A stretch of DNA of 64,000 bases, counting the filler, from Diploschistes diacapsis (Eukaryota), in assembly GCA_023645945.1 (NCBI GenBank). It is 12 parts of 12 records of this genome, joined end to end, with 100 filler letters (N's around TTAATTAATTAA, not from the genome) between each part and the next. Parts side by side here need not be neighbours in the genome. Positions count along the whole stretch, not along the records: positions 39,968 to 43,333 come from JALAIB010001937.1; 11 more parts are not named here. One strand, 5' to 3'. The stretch's first letter is position 1. Every line of letters starts with the position of its first letter. A model generated the notes under the pieces. That model did not search any database and was not told where the DNA came from. It saw only the letters and a program-made list of their open reading frames with translations. Both the position numbers and the translations under genes were made by a program. Positions 7,141 through 59,658 of this stretch are shown one piece after another.

Positions 7141-7225
7141 GAGCTGGCAGCTGGAGCCGACCTCGCTGGCCATGGCGTCACCACCTATGACGATGGCGCT
7201 TGGCATTGCTCTACAATAACTAGAA
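7141..7225 (+). repeat. Dispersed repeat, probable degenerate short solo LTR (copy A)
   Basis: GCTGGCAGCTGGAGCCGACCTCGCTG..CTATGACGATGGCGCTTGGCAT aligns by eye with 42531-42610; weaker similarity to 7590-7680. Confidence 0.55.
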
Positions 7226-8705
7226 TTCGGTAAAGTAAAGGGATAAAACCAGATTTATATTATTATCCGAGAAATAGGTATAATTGATATCGAGATCAAT
7301 ACGAAAGGAAAGCGGACTAAAAGCATGACTTTATATGCCAAAAATGAGACCATATAAAGTGTGACCTATAGGGTCATAGATCCCCCGCTGCCACAGCCAC
7401 GCACCTATATATAGTGTAATAGGGAAACAATGCTTCGGGGTTCCTGAAAGCATTGTGGTTAGTTCTTTTGGCTCAGTGGGATAGTTGCTACCTATTAGGT
7501 GCTATTCCCCGCTGTTACAAATATCTATTATTAAAGTATTTACAGTTTAAATTGAGACCTTACAGCAACGTACTTGCTACTGCGAGTTGGGCCTCGCTCA
7601 TGTCGCCTACGCCCCGGGGTCGCTGCTGGGTGCAGCAGCATCTACCTACAACGATGCTGCCCACATTAGCTATATAGAGTTTCTATTCCTACCTAACTGG
7701 AGCCAACCTCGATACAACTGCACGCCTCAATCACACAAAACCGATCGAGGATCATTTACAAACTTTACGCGATATCGTTAACCATAAAGGATATCGATAC
7801 GATTGTTGAATTAAACCGACCGTTCTTTTTATTCGCGCCAACAGGCTGGGCTTCGAAGGAAAACTAAAGATGAGCACGGCATTAAGAGAAAACCTTATTG
7901 GCGCGGTGCCCTTGAACCTATATCAATGGCGGTTGATCGGTAAAAGCTTTTTTGACGGGTTTCTTGTAGGGTAGACTGGCGTCCTGGCAGAGGCCTTGAC
8001 GTCCCCATTCCCCCAGTACGCGGCTCGAGTCTGAGATGGTAAGTTCTCCTTGTATGAACCCAACCCCCTTCGTAGTCAGTGTTGGTGACGAAAGGTGCGC
8101 TTCAGCACTACATCGCGCGATACATCGAGAAGATGGAAAAAACTTGATGGTTTTGTGAGGGGCTAACACCCCTTACACCCCTACTACAGCCTCCATCGTC
8201 AACTGTTGGCTCGCGCCCCGCCTCCTTCTTGCCGGGACCGAGGTTCCACGACAGAAATCAGCGGCTGATCCCCAGGTACGGTATGGCTTGACTACTATTA
8301 GTTTTGGCCAATATATATCTAGATAGTAGCACGATTGTTTTAAGGTTGTTTCAAAGCTTTGACAGCGAACCTGGCTAACTGACCAGCCAGCTACTTTGGA
8401 TACCTAACTAATAACCCCCCCGTCTCAAAAGAGTGTCGGGCACTGAGTTTTTTTGTTCCTAGGTTTTGGGGGTATTAAGCGTGACCAAATACCCTTGCTA
8501 TATGCTGCGCTCTTTCAATATTCCTTTCTTGATTCCTAAATTGAGACGACTCTAAACCAAAGAATGTTCTTGTTGACAATACTGATCGCCGCTCGCCTTG
8601 CTCTGTAAGAAATCCTTCCCTCGCCAAGATAGACCACAATGGAGCGATGTTTCCCCCCAAGATTTCGAGCCCCTAAACAAATGTTGCTTGCTGGACCGCG
8701 CAAGG

Positions 8706-13326: not shown

Positions 13327-15231
13327 TCAAGCCAGGGCCGCCAGTTGCCCGTTCAACGTCGGAGGGTCATACTTGACGTACTTCCCCTTCCCCTTGTCGA
13401 TCTCGTGATATCGTTCCCAAAACCTCGAGTACATGGCATCCATCAGAGACTTGATCTCCCTCGCCAATAGCGACCGCACTTCCCTCTCCATCGCCGGCGT
13501 CAGCTCGCGGTGCTTGGCACACAGGCTGTCGAACATGACGTTGAAGTTCTTGAACTTGTCCTTGATCGCGTCCTTTCTCTTGCTGTCGAGACCCTTGACG
13601 AGCGAGGCGGACTCGTTCGGCCCGACGTTGCCTGAGGGAGGCCGCTGGCCCTTCTTGTCTTTACTTGTGCTGAGAGAGTCCATCAACGTGGCCCGTACAA
13701 GCTCGTTCCAGGGGTCGAGGCAGAGCTTGATGCCTTTTGCGCGCCAGCCATCCAGCTTGTTGTTTGGTTGGTTGGCGAAGAATGACGCGAGCTCGGAGGA
13801 GCGGATCATGCGATCTGCGACTGCGTGGTTGTTGAGGAGGAAAACGCCGGTGACGGTCTTTTGTTTGTGGATCAGGCGCGACTTAGATTCCAGGTCTTTG
13901 AACAGGGCTTCAATTGTATCTTCGGCGTAGCGGGCTAGCAGAGACGAGGAGTTGGGGTTGACGTCGAAAGACTTCAACGTTGGAATAGATGACGCGGAGT
14001 TGCCGGTCCCGGGCGACATCCAGTTCCTGTCGCCCACGGAAGACATGATGGAGCCCAAGGGGGCAGGATAGGCTGTCATGGCCTGTAAACGGGTCATGAT
14101 CTGGGCTGTGAAAGGTAGCGCGGAACCGTCTGTTGGGAGGTACGTCATCATGTTGACACGGCCACGTACATCGTCAAGCAGCTCAGCCAACGAAGTTTTG
14201 GCCGTATCGCGTACAGGTTTCACGGCTCCGAAGATCTCTTGTTTGAGCAGCCCGGTCCTCTTGTCAATTTCAAATGCAAGGCTGTTTACTACGCCAATCA
14301 CGTCGTACGCAAGGAAACAGTCAGTGGTGATGTTTTGCTTTATCTGAGAATTGAGGTCCCGCAGAGTCTTAGCAAGCTCAGTTAAGGCCTTGCTGGTGGT
14401 GTTCTCGAGGAGCCGGCCACGGTCGGAAGCACCAAAGATAGCACAGATATTTGTCCATTCTGCGGCAAAGCTTAGCTCGATTCCAGTAGCATAGGTTCCG
14501 ATGGCACATGCTCCTTGACGATATATGTCTTCCGTATTCTGCCTCCTGGCAGTACTCAAAGTACCGGAAGCCAGATTGGTCAGGCTGGCTTGCAAGTATC
14601 GTCCTCGGATATCAGCATAGATTTGCGGCGCACTGTTGGGAGCATTGCGCTGAGTTCTTGACAAGAACATGCGTAGTTCTCCGAGCTGAGCAACCTTTTC
14701 CTGGTCAAAGGTAGGGAAAGGGCGGTTACGAGTGATGAATTGCAGCGGCTCGACTGTTTCAGAAGAGCTCGCAATGGCATCTTCAAACAGCTCTTGGATC
14801 CTCTTGCCCCCAAAGTTAAGCAGCTGGCTTAATTCTTGCGCTGCCTCTTGATTGACACGCACTGGCGAGCGGCTCAGCTGTTCGTGCTTACCATCTATTC
14901 GTCTCAAGCATGCCAGATAATTGGGGAGACCGACTCGTTCTGGGCCATCCCGGATCACTCTCTCATCCTCTGCCTTCCCCTCGAGTGGTGATTGCATCTT
15001 GTTGATAGCCTCAAGCATTCGGTCAGCATTTTCCGTAGTGGTCTGAAGGTACTGAGTATCATTATACACTGGACCGATAGCGGCTTGAAGAGAGGATCCA
15101 GTGTCCTGAATCCTCGCCAGCGAAGCCTTTATCTTCTTGCCCAGCTCATCGTGCTTCTTTGCTTGAGCTAGTAGAACTTCGACCTCCGCACTTTCCTCGG
15201 CCGCTTGCTCCCGGGTGCGCCTATGAGCCAT
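13327..15231 (-). CDS. EXO70: Exocyst complex subunit Exo70
   Basis: N-terminus MAHRRTREQAAEESAEVEVLLA, TTDCFLAY, GVFLLNN, KDAIKDKFKNFNVMFD, C-terminus YHEIDKGKGKYVKYD. The ORF is open upstream to ATG 15459. Confidence 0.93.
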   Translation of the reverse strand: MAHRRTREQAAEESAEVEVLLAQAKKHDELGKKIKASLARIQDTGSSLQAAIGPVYNDTQYLQTTTENADRMLEAINKMQSPLEGKAEDERVIRDGPERVGLPNYLACLRRIDGKHEQLSRSPVRVNQEAAQELSQLLNFGGKRIQELFEDAIASSSETVEPLQFITRNRPFPTFDQEKVAQLGELRMFLSRTQRNAPNSAPQIYADIRGRYLQASLTNLASGTLSTARRQNTEDIYRQGACAIGTYATGIELSFAAEWTNICAIFGASDRGRLLENTTSKALTELAKTLRDLNSQIKQNITTDCFLAYDVIGVVNSLAFEIDKRTGLLKQEIFGAVKPVRDTAKTSLAELLDDVRGRVNMMTYLPTDGSALPFTAQIMTRLQAMTAYPAPLGSIMSSVGDRNWMSPGTGNSASSIPTLKSFDVNPNSSSLLARYAEDTIEALFKDLESKSRLIHKQKTVTGVFLLNNHAVADRMIRSSELASFFANQPNNKLDGWRAKGIKLCLDPWNELVRATLMDSLSTSKDKKGQRPPSGNVGPNESASLVKGLDSKRKDAIKDKFKNFNVMFDSLCAKHRELTPAMEREVRSLLAREIKSLMDAMYSRFWERYHEIDKGKGKYVKYDPPTLNGQLAALA

Positions 15232-15769
15232 GTTCAAGTCTTTGGGCCTAGCTGCCCATGTGAATGATACTGGAGGAGGCCCCACAAAGGTAGAGACGGT
15301 CTTGTCAAACTGCTCGATTAAATCTATAAAATCTTTCTCTTTTTTTTGAGCCTTTGTTGGTTGTCCGTCGGAGGTTGAGCCATGGTGTGGCTTGGAAGCA
15401 AAGTCGCCCATGGCTGGTGTATCTAGCGGTTCTGAGTCTTCCGCTCGCTGGTTGGTCATTCAAGCGAGACTGTTATCTGGAGCAGATGAAGTGTGGCGCT
15501 AGCTGTGACTTCCCCTGTCTTGTCGCGTCAACAATTTTCACAAACACGAGATACGCAATGATTATTCATGGTGTTACAGCTACAAGTCTTCCGTGAAAGC
15601 ATCATGGAGAACATGTTTCATGCACTTCATTGACACAGATGAAACCTGTGTATGCCAACTTGTCCGGCATGATAAGGAGTATGCCAGGTTCATCTCCTTC
15701 CTGATCTCTTCATGAGCTTCGGTTTCTTGAAGCTCCTAATGCAATTCTCGAGCCCAAGTCAATGTTAAC

Positions 15770-38864: not shown

Positions 38865-40029
38865 ATGGGGTGCTTGTAGGTATGAAGTCCGAGTTGTATG
38901 TTTTGATTGGCTGGGTATGGGATAAGGGAGTGTATGCTACGATTGGGTATCATAGATGATGTTCTCTCTCTCGAGTTTCAGGATCCTTCCCCATCTATCG
39001 TTGCTTCTGCAAGCAAGAGTCACCTATTGTTGTTGGTCTCTAATGTCCGCTAAAATTTCGGTGTCTTCTACGAGTCTCCTCAGCTAACAGTGCCACTGGC
39101 AGCTGGATTTCCTTTTCTATTTACAAGTCAGTAGCACATCTTGTGAGAACACCTTCTGGTTGAAGCATTCAAGAAGCGAGAGCATGTATCATGAATCTGT
39201 TGCTGAATCTGCCATCAACCTTTTTTCCCTTCGGGAATGGGCTTCCTCAACGCAGCGCGCTGCTGCTTCCCCTTCGCAACCTGCTTTTCTTTGTTGAGCG
39301 AGCACGTGCTAAGATCTGGCAAGCGATGCCTTTTCCGAACCGACTCCAAAGGAACCATACGAGGCTCGAGACGCTCAACCTCGCAGTCGGCGGATTCCAT
39401 GACATGGAAGCCATCGACCACAACCACGCATCCACGTGCACGTGCACATTAGCTCCCAGCTTTCCATCGCGGTGCCGTTTCAACCCTCCGCAGCTCCTTT
39501 GGCACGACTTGAGAGACCGGGAGTGTAGAGGCTCAAAGGGAAACAACGGCATTCAGCATTTCGAAAATGGACAAAGCCTCGAGAACAAAGCCCACGATTC
39601 ATCCTCCTACTCGTCGAACGCAAGGCCTCGACAAAGGCCATTATGCTTGCTACACACCCCCCACCGTTTAAAATGCATGCTCGACTCTCCTATCCGCTCA
39701 CCATCACTGTCTACCACCACACTACCACCACAATACTAAACCGTGCCCCCAACCGAACCTACCACACCCACCAAACCAAGCAGCCGACAGGTAAGTCTCC
39801 ATCCCTCCAGCACCACGCCCCCCACCAGCCAAGACCGAAATGTGCTGGCGTCTCACCACCATAACCCNNNNNNNNNNNNNNNNNNNNNNNNNNNNNNNNN
39901 NNNNNNNNNNNTTAATTAATTAANNNNNNNNNNNNNNNNNNNNNNNNNNNNNNNNNNNNNNNNNNNNGACAGAGAAAGTATCTATAGAACCATAATACTT
40001 ATCATGTAATTTATGTGTATAGTAGGCAG

Positions 40030-40860
40030 AATAGCACTTGCCCACTTAACGGCCCATCCCACAAAGCGGCTCACTATCCCTGCACCTTCGTAAAATGTAT
40101 TTCTTAACATTTTCACCTTTCGTACGATAACATTCTTTTATTATAAATACTCAAGAAGGCCGAATCGCTTTAGCATTAAATGCTTTATAATCAAAAGAAT
40201 GTAAATCCGTACGATAAGTTAGTGAACGATTTGGAATTCTTTTAATAACGTTCCGTCATTATCGAAATAATAAAAAAATTAAAAAAGAATGGGCCGTTAT
40301 ACGACAAAATTTATAATCATAGAAGAAGAATCGCTCGTACGATGGATTCTTTTAATGAACGAACGAGGATTCTCTATACGAAAAGATACTATTGTTATAA
40401 GTGTAAATATTATCCTTCGCGATCGTACGAACAATTCCGCATTAAAAATCGGAATAAATTAGATTAATCGATTTCTTTAACGATAATAATCTAGTTTACG
40501 TGTCAAAATTCTTCGAAAATACGATGAATAAAAAGCTCGAAATAAAAATTTAAATATCGTACGAAAATAATTTCGCATCGTACGAGAAAAGATTAATGAA
40601 TACAATATTTATCCGAAAGATATCTACAATTTCGATGAAACAGGGTTTCAAATGGGAGTAATTATAAATATAAAAGTAATTATTATATCTGAAATATATG
40701 GTCGTTTTGTACATCTTTAACCAGGAAATCGAGAATGGGTGACAGTTATCGAATCTATCAATATTTCGTACGAAGTAATATTACCTATGGTTATGTTCGC
40801 GGGCAAATGGCATCAAAAATCTTAGTACGACGTTCTTCCAAAAGATTGGACAATCGGAAT
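40030..40860 (+). pseudogene. RIP-inactivated pogo/Fot1 (DDE_1) transposase
   Basis: EEESLVRWIL, DIYNFDETGFQMG, PGNREWVTVIE, LPKDWTIG, with many stops; truncated by an LTR at 40861. Confidence 0.9.
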
Positions 40861-41295
40861 TGTTGAAAGTGGTGGAAGTTCCTAATTGGTAACTGATGAC
40901 TAAGAGTGTATTCTTCAGCTAGTCCTAACTAGGGAATAATCCTAGCCTGCCTAGCCTGGTAGCTGACTATTGTTCAGTAATAATATATTGAAGAGGTTGA
41001 AGGTTATAACTAAGAACGATGGAGGGTGAGAGGCCTTTTATAGGCACATTTCACGCTAGTGTGATTATTAATAATTTAATGTAGACTGTTCCTTATCCTT
41101 TCCAATCATTCCAGGCATTAGTAAGCCGAATATTCTAGAATATTCTAGAATATTCGATCATATTCGATCATATTCGATAATCTTCGATGATGTTCTATTA
41201 TATTCTAGAATATTCTAGAACCTTCCAGAATATTCGAACATGCTAGAAAGCTTAGTAAACAATCTTACTAACCTATTTAAATTAATATTCTGACA
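40861..41295 (+). mobile_element. LTR (TGTTG..TGACA) containing TATTCTAGAA-type 10-mer repeats
   Basis: The first ~140 bp match the reverse complement of ~50585-50739. Confidence 0.7.
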
Positions 41296-41297
41296 TT

Positions 41298-41535
41298 CAT
41301 CACGAAAGGTTTTTGGCAGCGAAACACCGCGAAAACCTATATAGTGCGCGAAACTAACGAAATCGAAAAACCGGCAACAGATAATACCTTTAAGCGACTC
41401 GCCAACTTTCATTAAACATTTTAGCGAAACGTGGCGAAACTGACGAAACCGGGGAAACTGACGAAATTGGCGAAATTGGCGAAACTGACGAAACTAACAA
41501 AACTAATAAAAACTGGCGAAGGTGGCGAGGCCAAT
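41298..41535 (+). mobile_element. Terminus of an unclassified DNA element with 9-bp subterminal repeats (CGAAACTGR)
   Basis: CATCACGAAAGGTTTTTGG..AAACACC..AAAACCT..AGTGCGCGAAACTA recurs, inverted, at 50740-50817. Confidence 0.6.
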
Positions 41536-42051
41536 CATTTTTTTTACTAAAATATTAAGTAAGTAAAAATTAATAATTATTCGAAGATTCTAAGGAGTTC
41601 TAGACTAGTCTAGAACCGAATAGAACACTATCGAGGATTCCACTAGCAATTTTCGATTATTCAATCAGTAACTGGAGGCTATTAGGAAGGATCATCGGAT
41701 CATTTGATTATTAATTCAATATTTGGATTAATGATCCAATCATATTTGGACCATGGATCCAATAAATGTTGGATAATTAGATCCACTATTATATTGGATT
41801 ATGGGTCGAATAATGTTGGATTATAAACCCAACATTTATGGGAGATTAATGTATTATTAATCATTGAGCACTAGTTAGGTGAAATGCGTCTATAAAGCAC
41901 CTCTCACCTTCCATCTTTACCAACGTTATCTTCATTTTTATTACTTCTTACAATAATAACACTTTATTATTATACGCAAGCTATTCAGTTTCTATTTTAT
42001 TAATTGTTCTTGCCTACTTAGTGATTCTATTTCCCATTTTTAGCATTCCGA

Positions 42052-42445
42052 ATGCGTTATCTATTTTTATTCTTACTTTGCTCGAATGTTTACGGCCAGG
42101 ATTTTATCGATAATCTCCATTCTCGTGAATTTAATTCTTTAAACATTCGTGATAACGACGATTTATCCAACCCTTTCTATACCCGCGACATTCAATATAG
42201 CCGTCTATTCGCTCGCGACGATCTCTACCCCCGAAATCCTTATTACAACCAGCTTGTTTCCAGAACAGCAGTTAATCCATGGACATATGACTGTTCAGCT
42301 TGTACCCTTACACAAATGATATCATCAAAGGAAAAACCTAAAGATCCTGTAAGTTATCTATTAATAAAAATTAATTTTAACTAATTATCTTCAGCATTGT
42401 GCTGTATGTGGCAGTCGTGTAAGAGTTCGTAAAGGACGTGATTGA
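42052..42445 (+). CDS. Small secreted protein (115 aa) with repeated pro-motifs and a CxxC..CxxC domain; effector candidate
   Basis: TATAAA at ~41891; exon 42052-42348; 46-nt intron GTAAGT..CTAAT..CAG; exon 42395-42445 (HCAVCGSRVRVRKGRD*); signal peptide MRYLFLFLLCSNVYG. Confidence 0.8.
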
Positions 42446-42492
42446 TTTGTTAGCATTATTTATTCCGTTTATTTTCCGTAAATTATACCTGC

Positions 42493-42664
42493 TGTCAGTG
42501 GTAGTAGCTGGGGTTGCTACTAGGGTTACTGGTGGCAGGTGGTGCCGACCTCGCTGCCATTAGGCGAGGGCTATGACGATGCCGTTTGGCATCTGCTATA
42601 CATAATAGATTTTGCTTCAGCTTAGCTACAAATCTATACTCACTTCCTATACAATGATTTGACA
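42493..42664 (+). mobile_element. Probable short solo LTR (copy B of the 7141 repeat)
   Basis: TGTCA..TGACA inverted ends; core shared with 7141-7225; no TSD seen. Confidence 0.5.
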
Positions 42665-42861
42665 GATGATTTGCATATCAGTCAGATTATTAACCTTAAT
42701 ATATAATTTATCTGGCGTTTATTATTAATAATGTACCGAATGTTTTAGAAGTGTTACTGTCACATGATTAACCTAAATAACTTAGTCTGTCTGACCAAGC
42801 ATTTAGTGGACCCGGAGGTTCTAAGAGGTTCTGGAGTGGTCCCGAACTTAATAGATCATTA

Positions 42862-43333
42862 ACATATTTCATAAGTTATCCGCCCACATAAGTTATCGGC
42901 CCACCTCCTCCTTTTTTACGTGTTTTCGACCTATAACTTCATATATCTTAATTATCATTATTTCAATTGATATGTAGTAAGAAAAGTGGCTATGATTAAT
43001 TATTAAAGTAATAAAAACTGATCAATTATCTTTATACGGAAGGTTATAAAATATACGATATTTTTCGATCCATTTAACGTAATAGATTTTAAGGATCTCG
43101 AGAATAACGCGTACGGAATCATACGAAGCGCAAATTAATAAAAACGGAAGAATATACGTTTCTGTTGAGCAGATAGGTAGAAGGCATGACTGGAAGTTCG
43201 ACTGAGTTCTAGAAGGAGGTTTAGTTCAGCTAAACTTCGGGGTTTAGTTTAATTGAATTTTTTAGGATTTTAATTAAACCGATCGGGAATAATATTAAAA
43301 ATAAGATTTAACGGATTCCGTAAGATATAAAAG
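42862..43333 (+). mobile_element. Second pogo/Fot1 5' relic interrupted at 43163 by a short LTR
   Basis: TIR-like duplicated CATAAGTTATC.GCCCAC and an eroded HTH region; the LTR TGTTGAGCAGATAGG.. is homologous to 50379-50533. Confidence 0.6.
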
Positions 43334-43433
43334 NNNNNNNNNNNNNNNNNNNNNNNNNNNNNNNNNNNNNNNNNNNNTTAATTAATTAANNNNNNNNNNN
43401 NNNNNNNNNNNNNNNNNNNNNNNNNNNNNNNNN

Positions 43434-54580: not shown

Positions 54581-55612
54581 ATGTCGCGCTCCTCCACAAC
54601 TGCTCAAGCAGTCGAAGCCACCAAGTCTGCCGGACAAGAGGTGAAGGCAACTTCCTCGACCATCCTCCACCACCCGTACACGCGTGTTGCCCTACCGTTT
54701 ATCAATGGTGGGCTAGCAGGAATGATGGCAACTGCAGTCATCCAGCCGGTCGACATGATCAAGGTGCGACTTCAGTTGGCAGGAGAAGGTCTTTCGACAG
54801 GGCCAAGATCATCGGCATTCACCATTACCAAGGATATTGTAGCATCAGGGAGGGCTCTGGATCTATATACGGGGCTCTCGGCTGGCCTTCTCAGGCAAGC
54901 TGTGTACACCACCGCGAGACTTGGCTTCTTTGATACCTTCATGGGCATGGCCAAATCAAGAGCCGAAGCCGCAGGCAAAGCACCCGGCTTCTCAGAGCGC
55001 GCCTTTTCTGGGCTTAGCGCCGGTGGTCTAGCCGCCATGCTAGGAAACCCCGCGGATCTTGCATTGATTCGAATGCAGAGCGACGGTCTTAAGCCAAAAG
55101 ACATGCGTGCAAACTATAGGTCGGTGCTCGATGCACTCGTCCGAATATCCAAGGCCGAAGGAATCACAGCCCTGTGGGCAGGCTGCGTACCAACCGTGGC
55201 ACGGGCGATGGCTCTAAACTTTGGCCAACTGGCATTCTTCTCGGAAGCGAAATCGCAACTGAAAACGAAGACGACTTGGTCGCCCCAAGTACAGACCTTG
55301 ACTGCCAGCGCCATAGCAGGTTTTTTCGCGTCGTTCTTCAGCCTACCGTTTGACTTCATTAAGACAAGGCTGCAGAAGCAGACGCGAGCTCCTGACGGCA
55401 CCCTTCCATATAAAGGCGTTCTACATTGCGCTCAAAAGGTTGTAAGAGAAGAAGGCTGGCTCAGATTCTATCGAGGCTTCACCACTTACTATGTCCGGAT
55501 TGCACCGCATGCGTAAGTCTGATGGCCAACAGTCAGCGAAGAGATTCTAACTTCTTACCTTAGTATGATAACATTGATAGCCGCAGACTTCTTAGGGTTC
55601 CTTACAAAATAG
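54581..55612 (+). CDS. Mitochondrial 2-oxoglutarate/malate (dicarboxylate) carrier, SLC25A11-like
   Basis: Three PxDxxK/RxR motifs, GLSAGLLRQAVYTTARLG, YYVRIAPH; intron 55513-55563. Confidence 0.9.
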
Positions 55613-58385: not shown

Positions 58386-59658
58386 ATGCTTTGGCATCTC
58401 TGGACCTTAGTGGCTTTGGTTCCGCTGATTCTTTGTGTGGAAGATTTCTATAAACTACTGGGTATCAAGAAATCTGCGCCCGATAAGGACATCAAAAAGG
58501 CCTATAGAACTCTTAGTAAGAAATTCCACCCTGACAAAAACTCGTAAGCATTGGACACCTGTATCAACGGCGATCTTCTGACAAACTATCAGGGGAGACC
58601 ATGGAGCACATCAGAAGTTTGTGGCAATTGCAGAGGCATATGAAGCACTCTCCAACAGTCAGACACGCCGAATCTACGACCAATATGGCCACGAGGGACT
58701 TTCGCAGCATAATCATGGCGGAGGTCAGCGGGCTCACGATCCTTTCGATCTCTTCTCACGCTTCTTCGGGGGCGGTGGCCATTTCGGTGGCGGAGGGCAA
58801 CGAAGAGGGCCGGACATGGAGGTTCGTGTAAGTGTCCCACTGCGAGACTTCTACAACGGTAAAGAACATGAATTCTCCGTCGAGAAACAACAAATATGTG
58901 AAGAGTGTGAAGGGACCGGTAGCGCCGACGGTGACGTGGCAGTTTGCTCACAATGTGGAGGTCATGGAATGGTGGTTCAGAAGCATATGCTTGCCCCCGG
59001 CATCTTCCAACAGCTACAGACGGGATGCGACAAGTGTGGTGGCCAGGGCAAGACGATCAAGAAACCCTGCAATGTGTGCGGTGGCTCCCGTGTGGTGAGA
59101 AGATTGTCCTCCTATACTCTTACCGTGGAGAAAGGGATATCCAGAGGAGCTCGGATAACTTATGAAAACGAGGCCGATGCCAGTCCTGACCATGTGGCCG
59201 GCGATTTAATCGTACAGCTCGAAGAACTTGATGCAACTATCGGGGTATCCGATGAAGAACGAGTTGACGGCAGCTTTTTCCGAAGAAAAGGCAATGAACT
59301 TTTCTGGAAAGAGGTTCTCAGTCTTCGAGAAGCTTGGATGGGAGATTGGACCAGGAACTTGACTCATTTGGACGGTCATTCTGTCCAGCTCCATCGAGAA
59401 AAGGGGATTGTAACCCAGCCCAACACCGTGGATATCATCGAAGGTGAAGGTATGCCATTGATCTTTGAGGATCAAGAGCGTAGTGGCCGTGGATTCGGGG
59501 ATTTGCATGTGGAATTTGTTGTGGTGCTCCCAGACCAGATGGACAAATCGATGGAAAAGGATTTCTGGGCTGTATGGGAGAAGTGGCGGAAAAGAAAAGC
59601 GGTAGATTTGCGCAATGATAATGGGAGACCACACAGCATAGATCGAGATGAGCTTTGA
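58386..59658 (+). CDS. SCJ1: ER-lumenal type I DnaJ (Scj1)
   Basis: Signal peptide, [13 protein letters not shown], one intron, four CxxCxGxG-type repeats, C-terminal RDEL. Confidence 0.92.

Follow-up and report, generated by a model that had tools for sequence, protein, structure and literature searches.

A candidate orphan gene for a small pre-pro-peptide with repeated LxxR motifs in AT-rich, transposon-derived fungal DNA

The LxxR motif has been described as an expanded Kex2 motif that defines the K2PP effectors, among them SnTox3, ToxA and SIX1/4/6 (Outram et al.; PMC8528282, bioRxiv 10.1101/2020.05.27.120113). According to PMC8528282, Arg occupies P1 and Leu or another aliphatic residue P4, the residues tolerated at the variable P2 include Thr, Pro, Glu and Ile, and Asp is disfavoured at P3. 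The preprint (bioRxiv 10.1101/2020.05.27.120113) counts a protein as K2PP if LxxR, KR or RR occurs after at least four residues and if over half of the secreted protein lies C-terminal to the site. Fungal AFP/BP antifungal proteins of the BPF superfamily are described in PMC13525654 as consisting of a signal, a pro-sequence, a Kex2-like LxxR (LDAR or LEAR) and a basic, Cys-stabilised mature part, with a gamma-core of the form GxCx(3,9)C or its inverse. Finally, KEPs are recognised in PMC6339444 by at least four fragments after cuts at KR/RR (or KK), at least three of which share one common motif, and the same paper gives X-Ala and X-Pro as the dipeptides preferred by Ste13.

Here we describe a candidate gene with which these systems can be compared, located in a window of 64 kb (the whole stretch of DNA that was analysed). 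The window chains 12 separate contigs, a complete one of 25,972 nt followed by pieces of ~3.4 kb arranged by decreasing length, and eleven spacers of 100 nt each (N44 + TTAATTAATTAA + N44) are spread over positions 25973-60706. The lengths between spacers are 3387, 3371, 3369, 3368, 3366, 3358, 3358, 3354, 3353 and 3350 nt, and the last piece stops at the window end. Since the window is a chain of contigs, findings based on adjacency across spacers are artefacts, and the only DNA truly contiguous with the gene is its own AT-rich, unplaced contig (39968-43333; 3366 nt; GC 34%); the AT-rich DNA at 33-36 kb and at 43.4-46.8 kb belongs to contigs other than this one. The features of the gene's contig, with its limits, are as follows.

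39868-39967 (no strand): artificial spacer, N44 + TTAATTAATTAA + N44, the left limit of the gene's contig
40025-40882 (plus strand): first transposase relic, pogo/Fot1/Tan1-type (DDE_1, Tc5 HTH), with RIP-type stops; protein search and tblastn
41015-41054 (no strand): left arm of an inverted repeat, 40 nt, 83% complementary, bounding a 904-nt segment
41879-41918 (plus strand): right arm of the inverted repeat, holding TATAAAG (41891-41897) and a CT-rich block
42052-42096 (plus strand): codons 1-15, signal-peptide-like, with a predicted cut after G15; home-made rule
42097-42264 (plus strand): codons 16-71, pro-region with six [LF]xxR sites (R25, R33, R45, R55, R61, R71) and QYSR (R51)
42265-42348 (plus strand): codons 72-99, opening portion of the predicted mature peptide; contains the first CxxC (C81, C84)
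42349-42394 (plus strand): predicted 46-nt intron with GTAAGT donor, CTAAT branch and CAG acceptor, GC 15%; sequence reading
42395-42445 (plus strand): exon 2, of 16 codons and a TGA stop; the second CxxC (C101, C104) is encoded here, followed by G and a basic tail
42533-42612 (no strand): stretch rich in GC on the 3' side of the gene, with 78% identity to positions 7145-7227 in the 25,972-nt contig
43021-43200 (plus strand): onset of the second transposase relic, likewise of pogo type, residues ~18-89 (33 HSPs, E 0.004-0.96)
43334-43433 (no strand): artificial spacer, the right limit of the gene's contig

Regarding the source organism, the 25,972-nt contig encodes an Exo70 (13327-15459, minus strand) that shares 72% identity with its Thelotrema lepadinum counterpart, with other Lecanoromycetes as the next named matches at ~50%; by this comparison, the assembly is that of a lichen-forming ascomycete, a Lecanoromycete. 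The transposase relic and the intron type on the gene's own contig are both fungal. The 25,972-nt contig also carries genes for a lysophospholipase and a Rad26-like protein, and genes for DnaJ, a mitochondrial carrier, a TPR protein and a short-chain dehydrogenase are found on other contigs of the window.

The gene model starts at an ATG at 42052, with C at position -3. Exon 1 (42052-42348, 99 codons, by reading and translation) is joined to exon 2 across the predicted intron, in which the CTAAT branch motif (42381-42385) lies 10 nt from the CAG acceptor, resulting in a spliced product of 115 aa. Left unspliced, the frame stops at 42384 after 110 aa and lacks the second CxxC, so that the claim of the earlier note that this motif appears only upon removal of a 46-nt intron is borne out by reading and translation of the predicted gene. 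GC amounts to 38% and 45% in the two exons as compared to 15% in the intron, and GC3 of the gene is 0.30. When long open frames were crudely scanned for bridging introns of this kind, seven candidates emerged, all on other contigs, part of which are probably false (e.g. one within the uninterrupted Exo70 frame); plausible ones include 55513-55580 in the mitochondrial-carrier gene and 58544-58592 in the DnaJ gene. Introns of housekeeping genes elsewhere in the window (GTAAGT or GTAAGC, CTRAY, 49-68 nt) are comparable to that of the gene.

At the N-terminus, our home-made signal rule recognises R2, an 8-residue hydrophobic core (residues 3-10; Kyte-Doolittle mean of 3.33 over residues 4-10), V at -3 and G at -1, the sequence before Q16 reading V-Y-G. 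The pro-region that follows (56 residues) has a net charge of -2 and nine aromatic residues, and by residue counts alone it is not clearly disorder-prone, holding 20 disorder-promoting versus 26 order-promoting residues. Translation confirmed the six LxxR-like motifs as they had been listed (LHSR-E, LNIR-D, FYTR-D, LFAR-D, LYPR-N, LVSR-T). Their P4 codons (CTC, TTA, TTC, CTA, CTC, CTT) and P1 codons (CGT, CGT, CGC, CGC, CGA, AGA) differ among the sites, which means that the LxxR pattern is maintained in the protein and does not stem from a DNA repeat. At P2 the six sites carry S, I, T, A, P and S, and Asp never occurs at their P3; both the tolerated I, T and P at P2 and the absence of Asp at P3 count in favour of a Kex2-type reading, as far as the motif description in PMC8528282 extends. 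The segments bounded by Arg are 10, 8, 12, 6, 4, 6 and 10 residues long and mutually unlike, and two of the sites are followed by X-Pro or X-Ala dipeptides (NP, TA), which fit the Ste13 preference as given in PMC6339444. Dibasic KR, RR or KK sites are absent from the product, in which R111-K112 is the sole adjacent basic pair. The predicted mature part comprises residues 72-115 (44 residues, net charge +4), with Cys at 81, 84, 101 and 104 forming CxxC-x16-CxxC-G ahead of the basic tail. Both CxxC motifs are thus present as had been stated, with a spacer of 16 residues, that is, the previously given x15 plus a His.

The gene is located in AT-rich, transposon-derived DNA and has itself been spared RIP-type inactivation. 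Relic 1 corresponds to residues ~14-254 of a ~550-residue transposase, with matches to 602 proteins at E<=0.001 (best 3.5e-47), and TAA or TAG has replaced 5 of its 9 strongly conserved W/Q codons, which is a RIP signature. The RIP index, calculated as (CpA+TpG)/(ApC+GpT), is 0.50 over 43021-43333 and hence strongly RIP-like at relic 2, as compared to 1.00 for the gene, 1.11 for 41015-42051 and 1.03 for 42446-43020, none of which is RIP-like. RIP-sensitive codons in the gene are TGG (1), CAA (2), CAG (2) and TGT (4), and this count bears out the claim that such codons survive; all five of the TGG, CAA and CAG codons are retained, with relic 1 standing 1.2 kb upstream. The accompanying claim of heavily RIP-mutated flanks holds for the nonsense codons of relic 1 and the index of relic 2, but not for the immediate flanks. 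Likewise, two pogo relics do lie on the gene's own contig, yet placing the gene inside a dead TE nest was an overstatement, the rest of that context belonging to other contigs. On one of these, at ~43.8-44.0 kb on the minus strand, we observed a weak, sub-cut-off match to a Tf2-1-type integrase SH3 domain (PF24626, E 4e-4), which suggests a putative relic of a Gypsy-type retrotransposon; the RIP index of this neighbouring contig is 0.55 and strongly RIP-like.

Between the two relics, the segment bounded by the inverted repeat (41015-41918, 904 nt) contains two tandem arrays, with units of 10 nt (41120-41257) and 9 nt (41423-41511), as well as an inner inverted repeat of 60 nt, and each outer arm bears an outward-facing TATA-like box. 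Its structure resembles that of a non-autonomous TIR or foldback element, and no flanking target-site duplication was discerned. An inverted gene duplicate to the left of the 41015 arm was ruled out, the similarity stopping with a core of 40-45 nt. The right arm with its CT-rich block lies 134 nt 5' of the ATG, and TATAAAG together with this block may serve as the core promoter. A lack of upstream ATGs was dropped as a sign of a 5'UTR (P ~0.24 by chance). Within the same segment, a palindromic stretch rich in TTGGAT/ATCCAA (41724-41830) gave Rfam miRNA-precursor matches on both strands (RF04111, 29 bits versus a gathering score of 80) and is most likely a hairpin-forming repeat. Downstream of the gene, the identity between 42533-42612 and the intergenic 7145-7227 spans 86 nt, and the stretch may represent either a fragment of some gene or a short dispersed repeat. 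Derivation of 42480-42612 from a tRNA or SINE was rejected, as a tRNA search of it came back empty and Rfam returned only sub-threshold miRNA-like hairpins.

We also considered whether the ORF itself derives from a transposon. The string 'LPPKSLLQP' in another frame had prompted the idea that it is the missing C-terminal half of a pogo transposase, which was rejected as none of 120 transposases gave a plus-strand HSP with E<1 over 42052-42445. Nor was a second copy of the gene detected in the 64-kb window at the DNA level, and at the protein level the best non-self match had an E of 0.24. A standard multicopy TE fragment, which the earlier note had named as an outcome that would overturn its reading, accordingly finds no support from these comparisons within the 64 kb.

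Searches beyond the window returned no relatives of the predicted product. Neither the 99-aa exon-1 form nor the 110-aa unspliced form matched any Pfam family, and a word-indexed protein search with the exon-1 product gave four candidates, none of which scored. The searched protein collection contains no match to the ORF, although the Exo70 of the 25,972-nt contig does occur in it. In an exhaustive HMMER search of 1.84 billion representatives, the sole match (E 3.8e-5) was a 727-aa repeat protein, rejected as an artefact because its 'FNSLD[VC][RK]KNIDM' repeat was matched in eight stretches, which inflates the summed score. The metagenome scan matched 162 patterns and gave 0 relatives, the ESM Atlas provided no usable match, and phmmer against the PDB with residues 72-99 returned a GATA finger alone (E 0.89). 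By the searches run, the predicted gene is an orphan, having no Pfam family and no homologue.

The paired CxxC motifs had been taken for a Zn-ribbon of the Rpb12/RpoP pattern. For comparison, we collected PF03604 matches from archaeal genomes (3/5, 66/81 and 54/81 genomes) and built our own profile from 55 archaeal RpoP domain sequences originating from 63 loci (31 unique). The spliced mature peptide reached 15.1 bits against this 55-domain profile, whereas among shuffles with fixed Cys the median was 2.0 bits, the 99th percentile 13.2 and the highest score 24.2, and 17 of 5000 reached 15.1. The alignment follows Y-x-C-x2-C-x16-C-x2-C-G-S-R-[IV] with a spacer of equal length and ends before the RpoP C-terminal tail. 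Basic residues are a further point of likeness to RpoP/Rpb12 (PF03604), and non-Cys matches are limited to Y, G, S, R and V/I. The resemblance to RpoP/Rpb12 thus appears real but slight and below any family threshold (the PF03604 cut-off of 24 bits belongs to a model other than our profile), and we do not file the peptide there. The two CxxC knuckles and the rarity of the score in shuffles speak weakly for the proposed ribbon; the sub-threshold score, the few non-Cys matches and the lack of any Pfam match for the exon-1 product speak against it. In a protein that enters the ER, a pair of disulfides would be at least as likely as a zinc site.

Considering the gene model and its product together, we tentatively favour, at a little below an even chance, the reading that this is a real, lineage-specific two-exon gene, whose 115-aa pre-pro-peptide would be cut at Kex2-type LxxR sites to yield a cationic four-Cys peptide. 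The 15-residue signal peptide would direct the precursor into the ER, and a Kex2-type convertase of the Golgi would then cut the acidic, aromatic pro-region of 56 residues after Arg at one or more of the six monobasic [LF]xxR sites, of which those carrying S or A at P2 are only putative substrates of Kex2. The final cut, between LVSR and TA, would release the C-terminal part, from which a Ste13-type aminopeptidase may afterwards trim an X-Ala dipeptide. In the resulting product of 44 residues and charge +4, the CxxC-x16-CxxC-G arrangement would pair two hairpin 'knuckles' via two disulfides or a zinc ion. The peptide would presumably work outside the hypha and, speculatively, its likeliest role would be that of a cationic, cysteine-stabilised antimicrobial or partner-interaction peptide.

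How far the same observations could arise without any gene, from a chance open frame in AT-rich repeat debris with motifs noticed post hoc, was assessed with simulated sequences, and we regard this explanation as unlikely, albeit well short of negligible. It accords with the orphan status in every search. Length alone is weak evidence, as an ATG-ORF of at least 110 codons occurred in 1.9-2.7% of Markov shuffles of the contig, and a second-order simulation of AT-rich contigs produced ORFs of at least 99 codons at ~7 per Mb (n=3687). The gene's low GC3 points the same way, T-rich DNA easily encodes hydrophobic starts, and the count of [LFIVM]xxR is unremarkable (at least six in 551 of the 3687 chance ORFs). 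Among these 3687, in contrast, none had a frame-extending intron (GTAAGT..CTRAY..YAG near the ORF end, at least 10 codons gained) and 95 contained a CxxC. The previously claimed signal peptide does pass our simple rule, yet so do 18 of the 3687, a small number that nevertheless tells against a chance frame. Values of GC1-GC3 as high as that of the spliced CDS (0.17) were attained by 6 of 1844 chance ORFs, and as high as that of the unspliced ORF (0.10) by 84 of 1844. Moreover, shuffling of the 57-residue pro-region gave p ~1e-5 for six [LF]xxR, and five [LF]xxR[DEN] were reached in 0 of 100000 shuffles. The LxxR enrichment noted earlier is statistically real by this measure, and LxxR as an expanded Kex2 motif is found in PMC8528282 and bioRxiv 10.1101/2020.05.27.120113. 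All features assessed here had been selected post hoc by a reader, and the formal values lose weight on this account. The GC difference between exons and intron also argues against a chance frame, and on these controls the intact gene of the earlier note is unlikely to be a product of chance.

If there is a gene, it could nevertheless differ from our preferred reading in its state or in its active product. Recent decay of a secreted-peptide gene, stranded among RIP-affected repeats and with its expression lost, would fit the AT-rich codon usage and surroundings, the RIP-inactivated transposase relics on both sides, and the C at -3 before the ATG, a weak start context; the intact frame, splice and branch sites, the five retained nonsense-prone codons and a local RIP index that is not RIP-like make such decay improbable in our view. 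We give similarly little credence to the possibility that the active products are short pro-region peptides in the style of KEPs or RiPPs, with the Cys tail acting as a follower or recognition domain. Seven segments end in Arg, measure 4-12 residues and abound in Tyr, Phe and Asp, which would suit this possibility, as would the NP and TA dipeptides given the Ste13 signature in PMC6339444, and a class of Kex2-cleaved precursors that release peptides is described in PMC8528282. The segments, however, are not repeats of one core, the missing KR, RR and KK leave the product outside the KEP definition, and no tailoring enzyme gene is present on the 3.4-kb contig, the other contigs not being truly adjacent. 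Alternatively, the product could be an intracellular small zinc-ribbon protein, derived from or convergent with RpoP/Rpb12, with an N-terminus whose hydrophobicity serves as a membrane anchor or stems from base composition. Zinc sites typically occur in proteins of the cytosol and nucleus, and the 15.1 bits against the archaeal RpoP domains, equalled by few Cys-fixed shuffles, point in this direction. This option is also doubtful to us, considering that the score lies far below the 24 bits of PF03604 (a different model), that the RpoP C-terminal tail is unaligned, that the PDB search of the exon-1 part returned nothing beyond the GATA finger, and that the regular LxxR[DE] pattern is left unexplained. 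Furthermore, the peptide follows a signal-like segment and a pro-region, which are found in no RNA polymerase subunit, and the signal-like N-terminus argues against a polymerase subunit. Least probable of all, and to our mind hardly credible, is an exported miniature RpoP/Rpb12-like ribbon with a basic tail, carried behind a signal and a multi-site convertase pro-domain, that passes into the alga or into competing microbes and there binds to nucleic acid or to the transcription machinery; if true, such an exported ribbon would amount to mimicry of an RNA-polymerase subunit by a secreted peptide. The earlier note's suggestion of an export to act on nucleic acids in a partner cell draws no support from the results above.

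Returning to the preferred reading of a Kex2-processed, cationic four-Cys peptide, an orphan candidate for a small secreted protein is, taken alone, one among hundreds per typical fungal genome. To our knowledge, the secreted effectors and antimicrobial peptides of lichen mycobionts have been little studied, and the gene, if expressed, would provide a further candidate secreted peptide from such a partner. In plant pathogens, lone small secreted-protein genes persist amid RIP-inactivated transposons; the present locus would repeat in a symbiont this pattern of a small secreted-protein gene among RIP-inactivated transposons. In addition, a pro-domain with six LxxR[D/E/N] and no dibasic site would offer a natural test of how far a convertase tolerates the expanded LxxR.

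In comparison to the systems outlined at the beginning, the KEPs share with this product a putative secreted precursor, many closely set convertase sites and, by the Ste13 preference in PMC6339444, possible Ste13 dipeptides (NP, TA); the product differs from the KEP definition given there in having neither dibasic cut sites nor a repeated core. As in the AFP/BP proteins, the layout is pre-pro, with six LxxR and a mature net charge of +4, which corresponds to the description in PMC13525654. Unlike them, it has only four Cys with spacings of 2, 16 and 2, which makes a gamma-core of the form given there impossible, and no sequence similarity to AFP/BP was found in the Pfam, word-indexed or HMMER searches. 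Parallels also exist with the K2PP effectors, namely a signal-like start, an N-terminal pro-region ending in LxxR, a small Cys-containing mature part and a lineage-specific product that belongs to no family. Cuts at R25, R33, R45, R55 and R61 would leave 90, 82, 70, 60 and 54 of 100 residues, respectively, and thus more than half of the secreted protein, and R71 alone would leave less (44 of 100). The differences from the K2PP effectors are the six or seven monobasic sites (theirs being one junction site), the lack of KR/RR, a cleavage that is predicted, the aromatic-rich pro-region, and a lichen fungus rather than a plant pathogen as the host of the gene. Disorder-promoting residues are abundant in K2PP pro-domains, whereas here they number 20 of 56 against 26 that promote order. 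Taken together, the candidate probably belongs to a known kind, the small secreted pre-pro cysteine peptides, within which its regular multi-LxxR pro-region would be the unusual feature.
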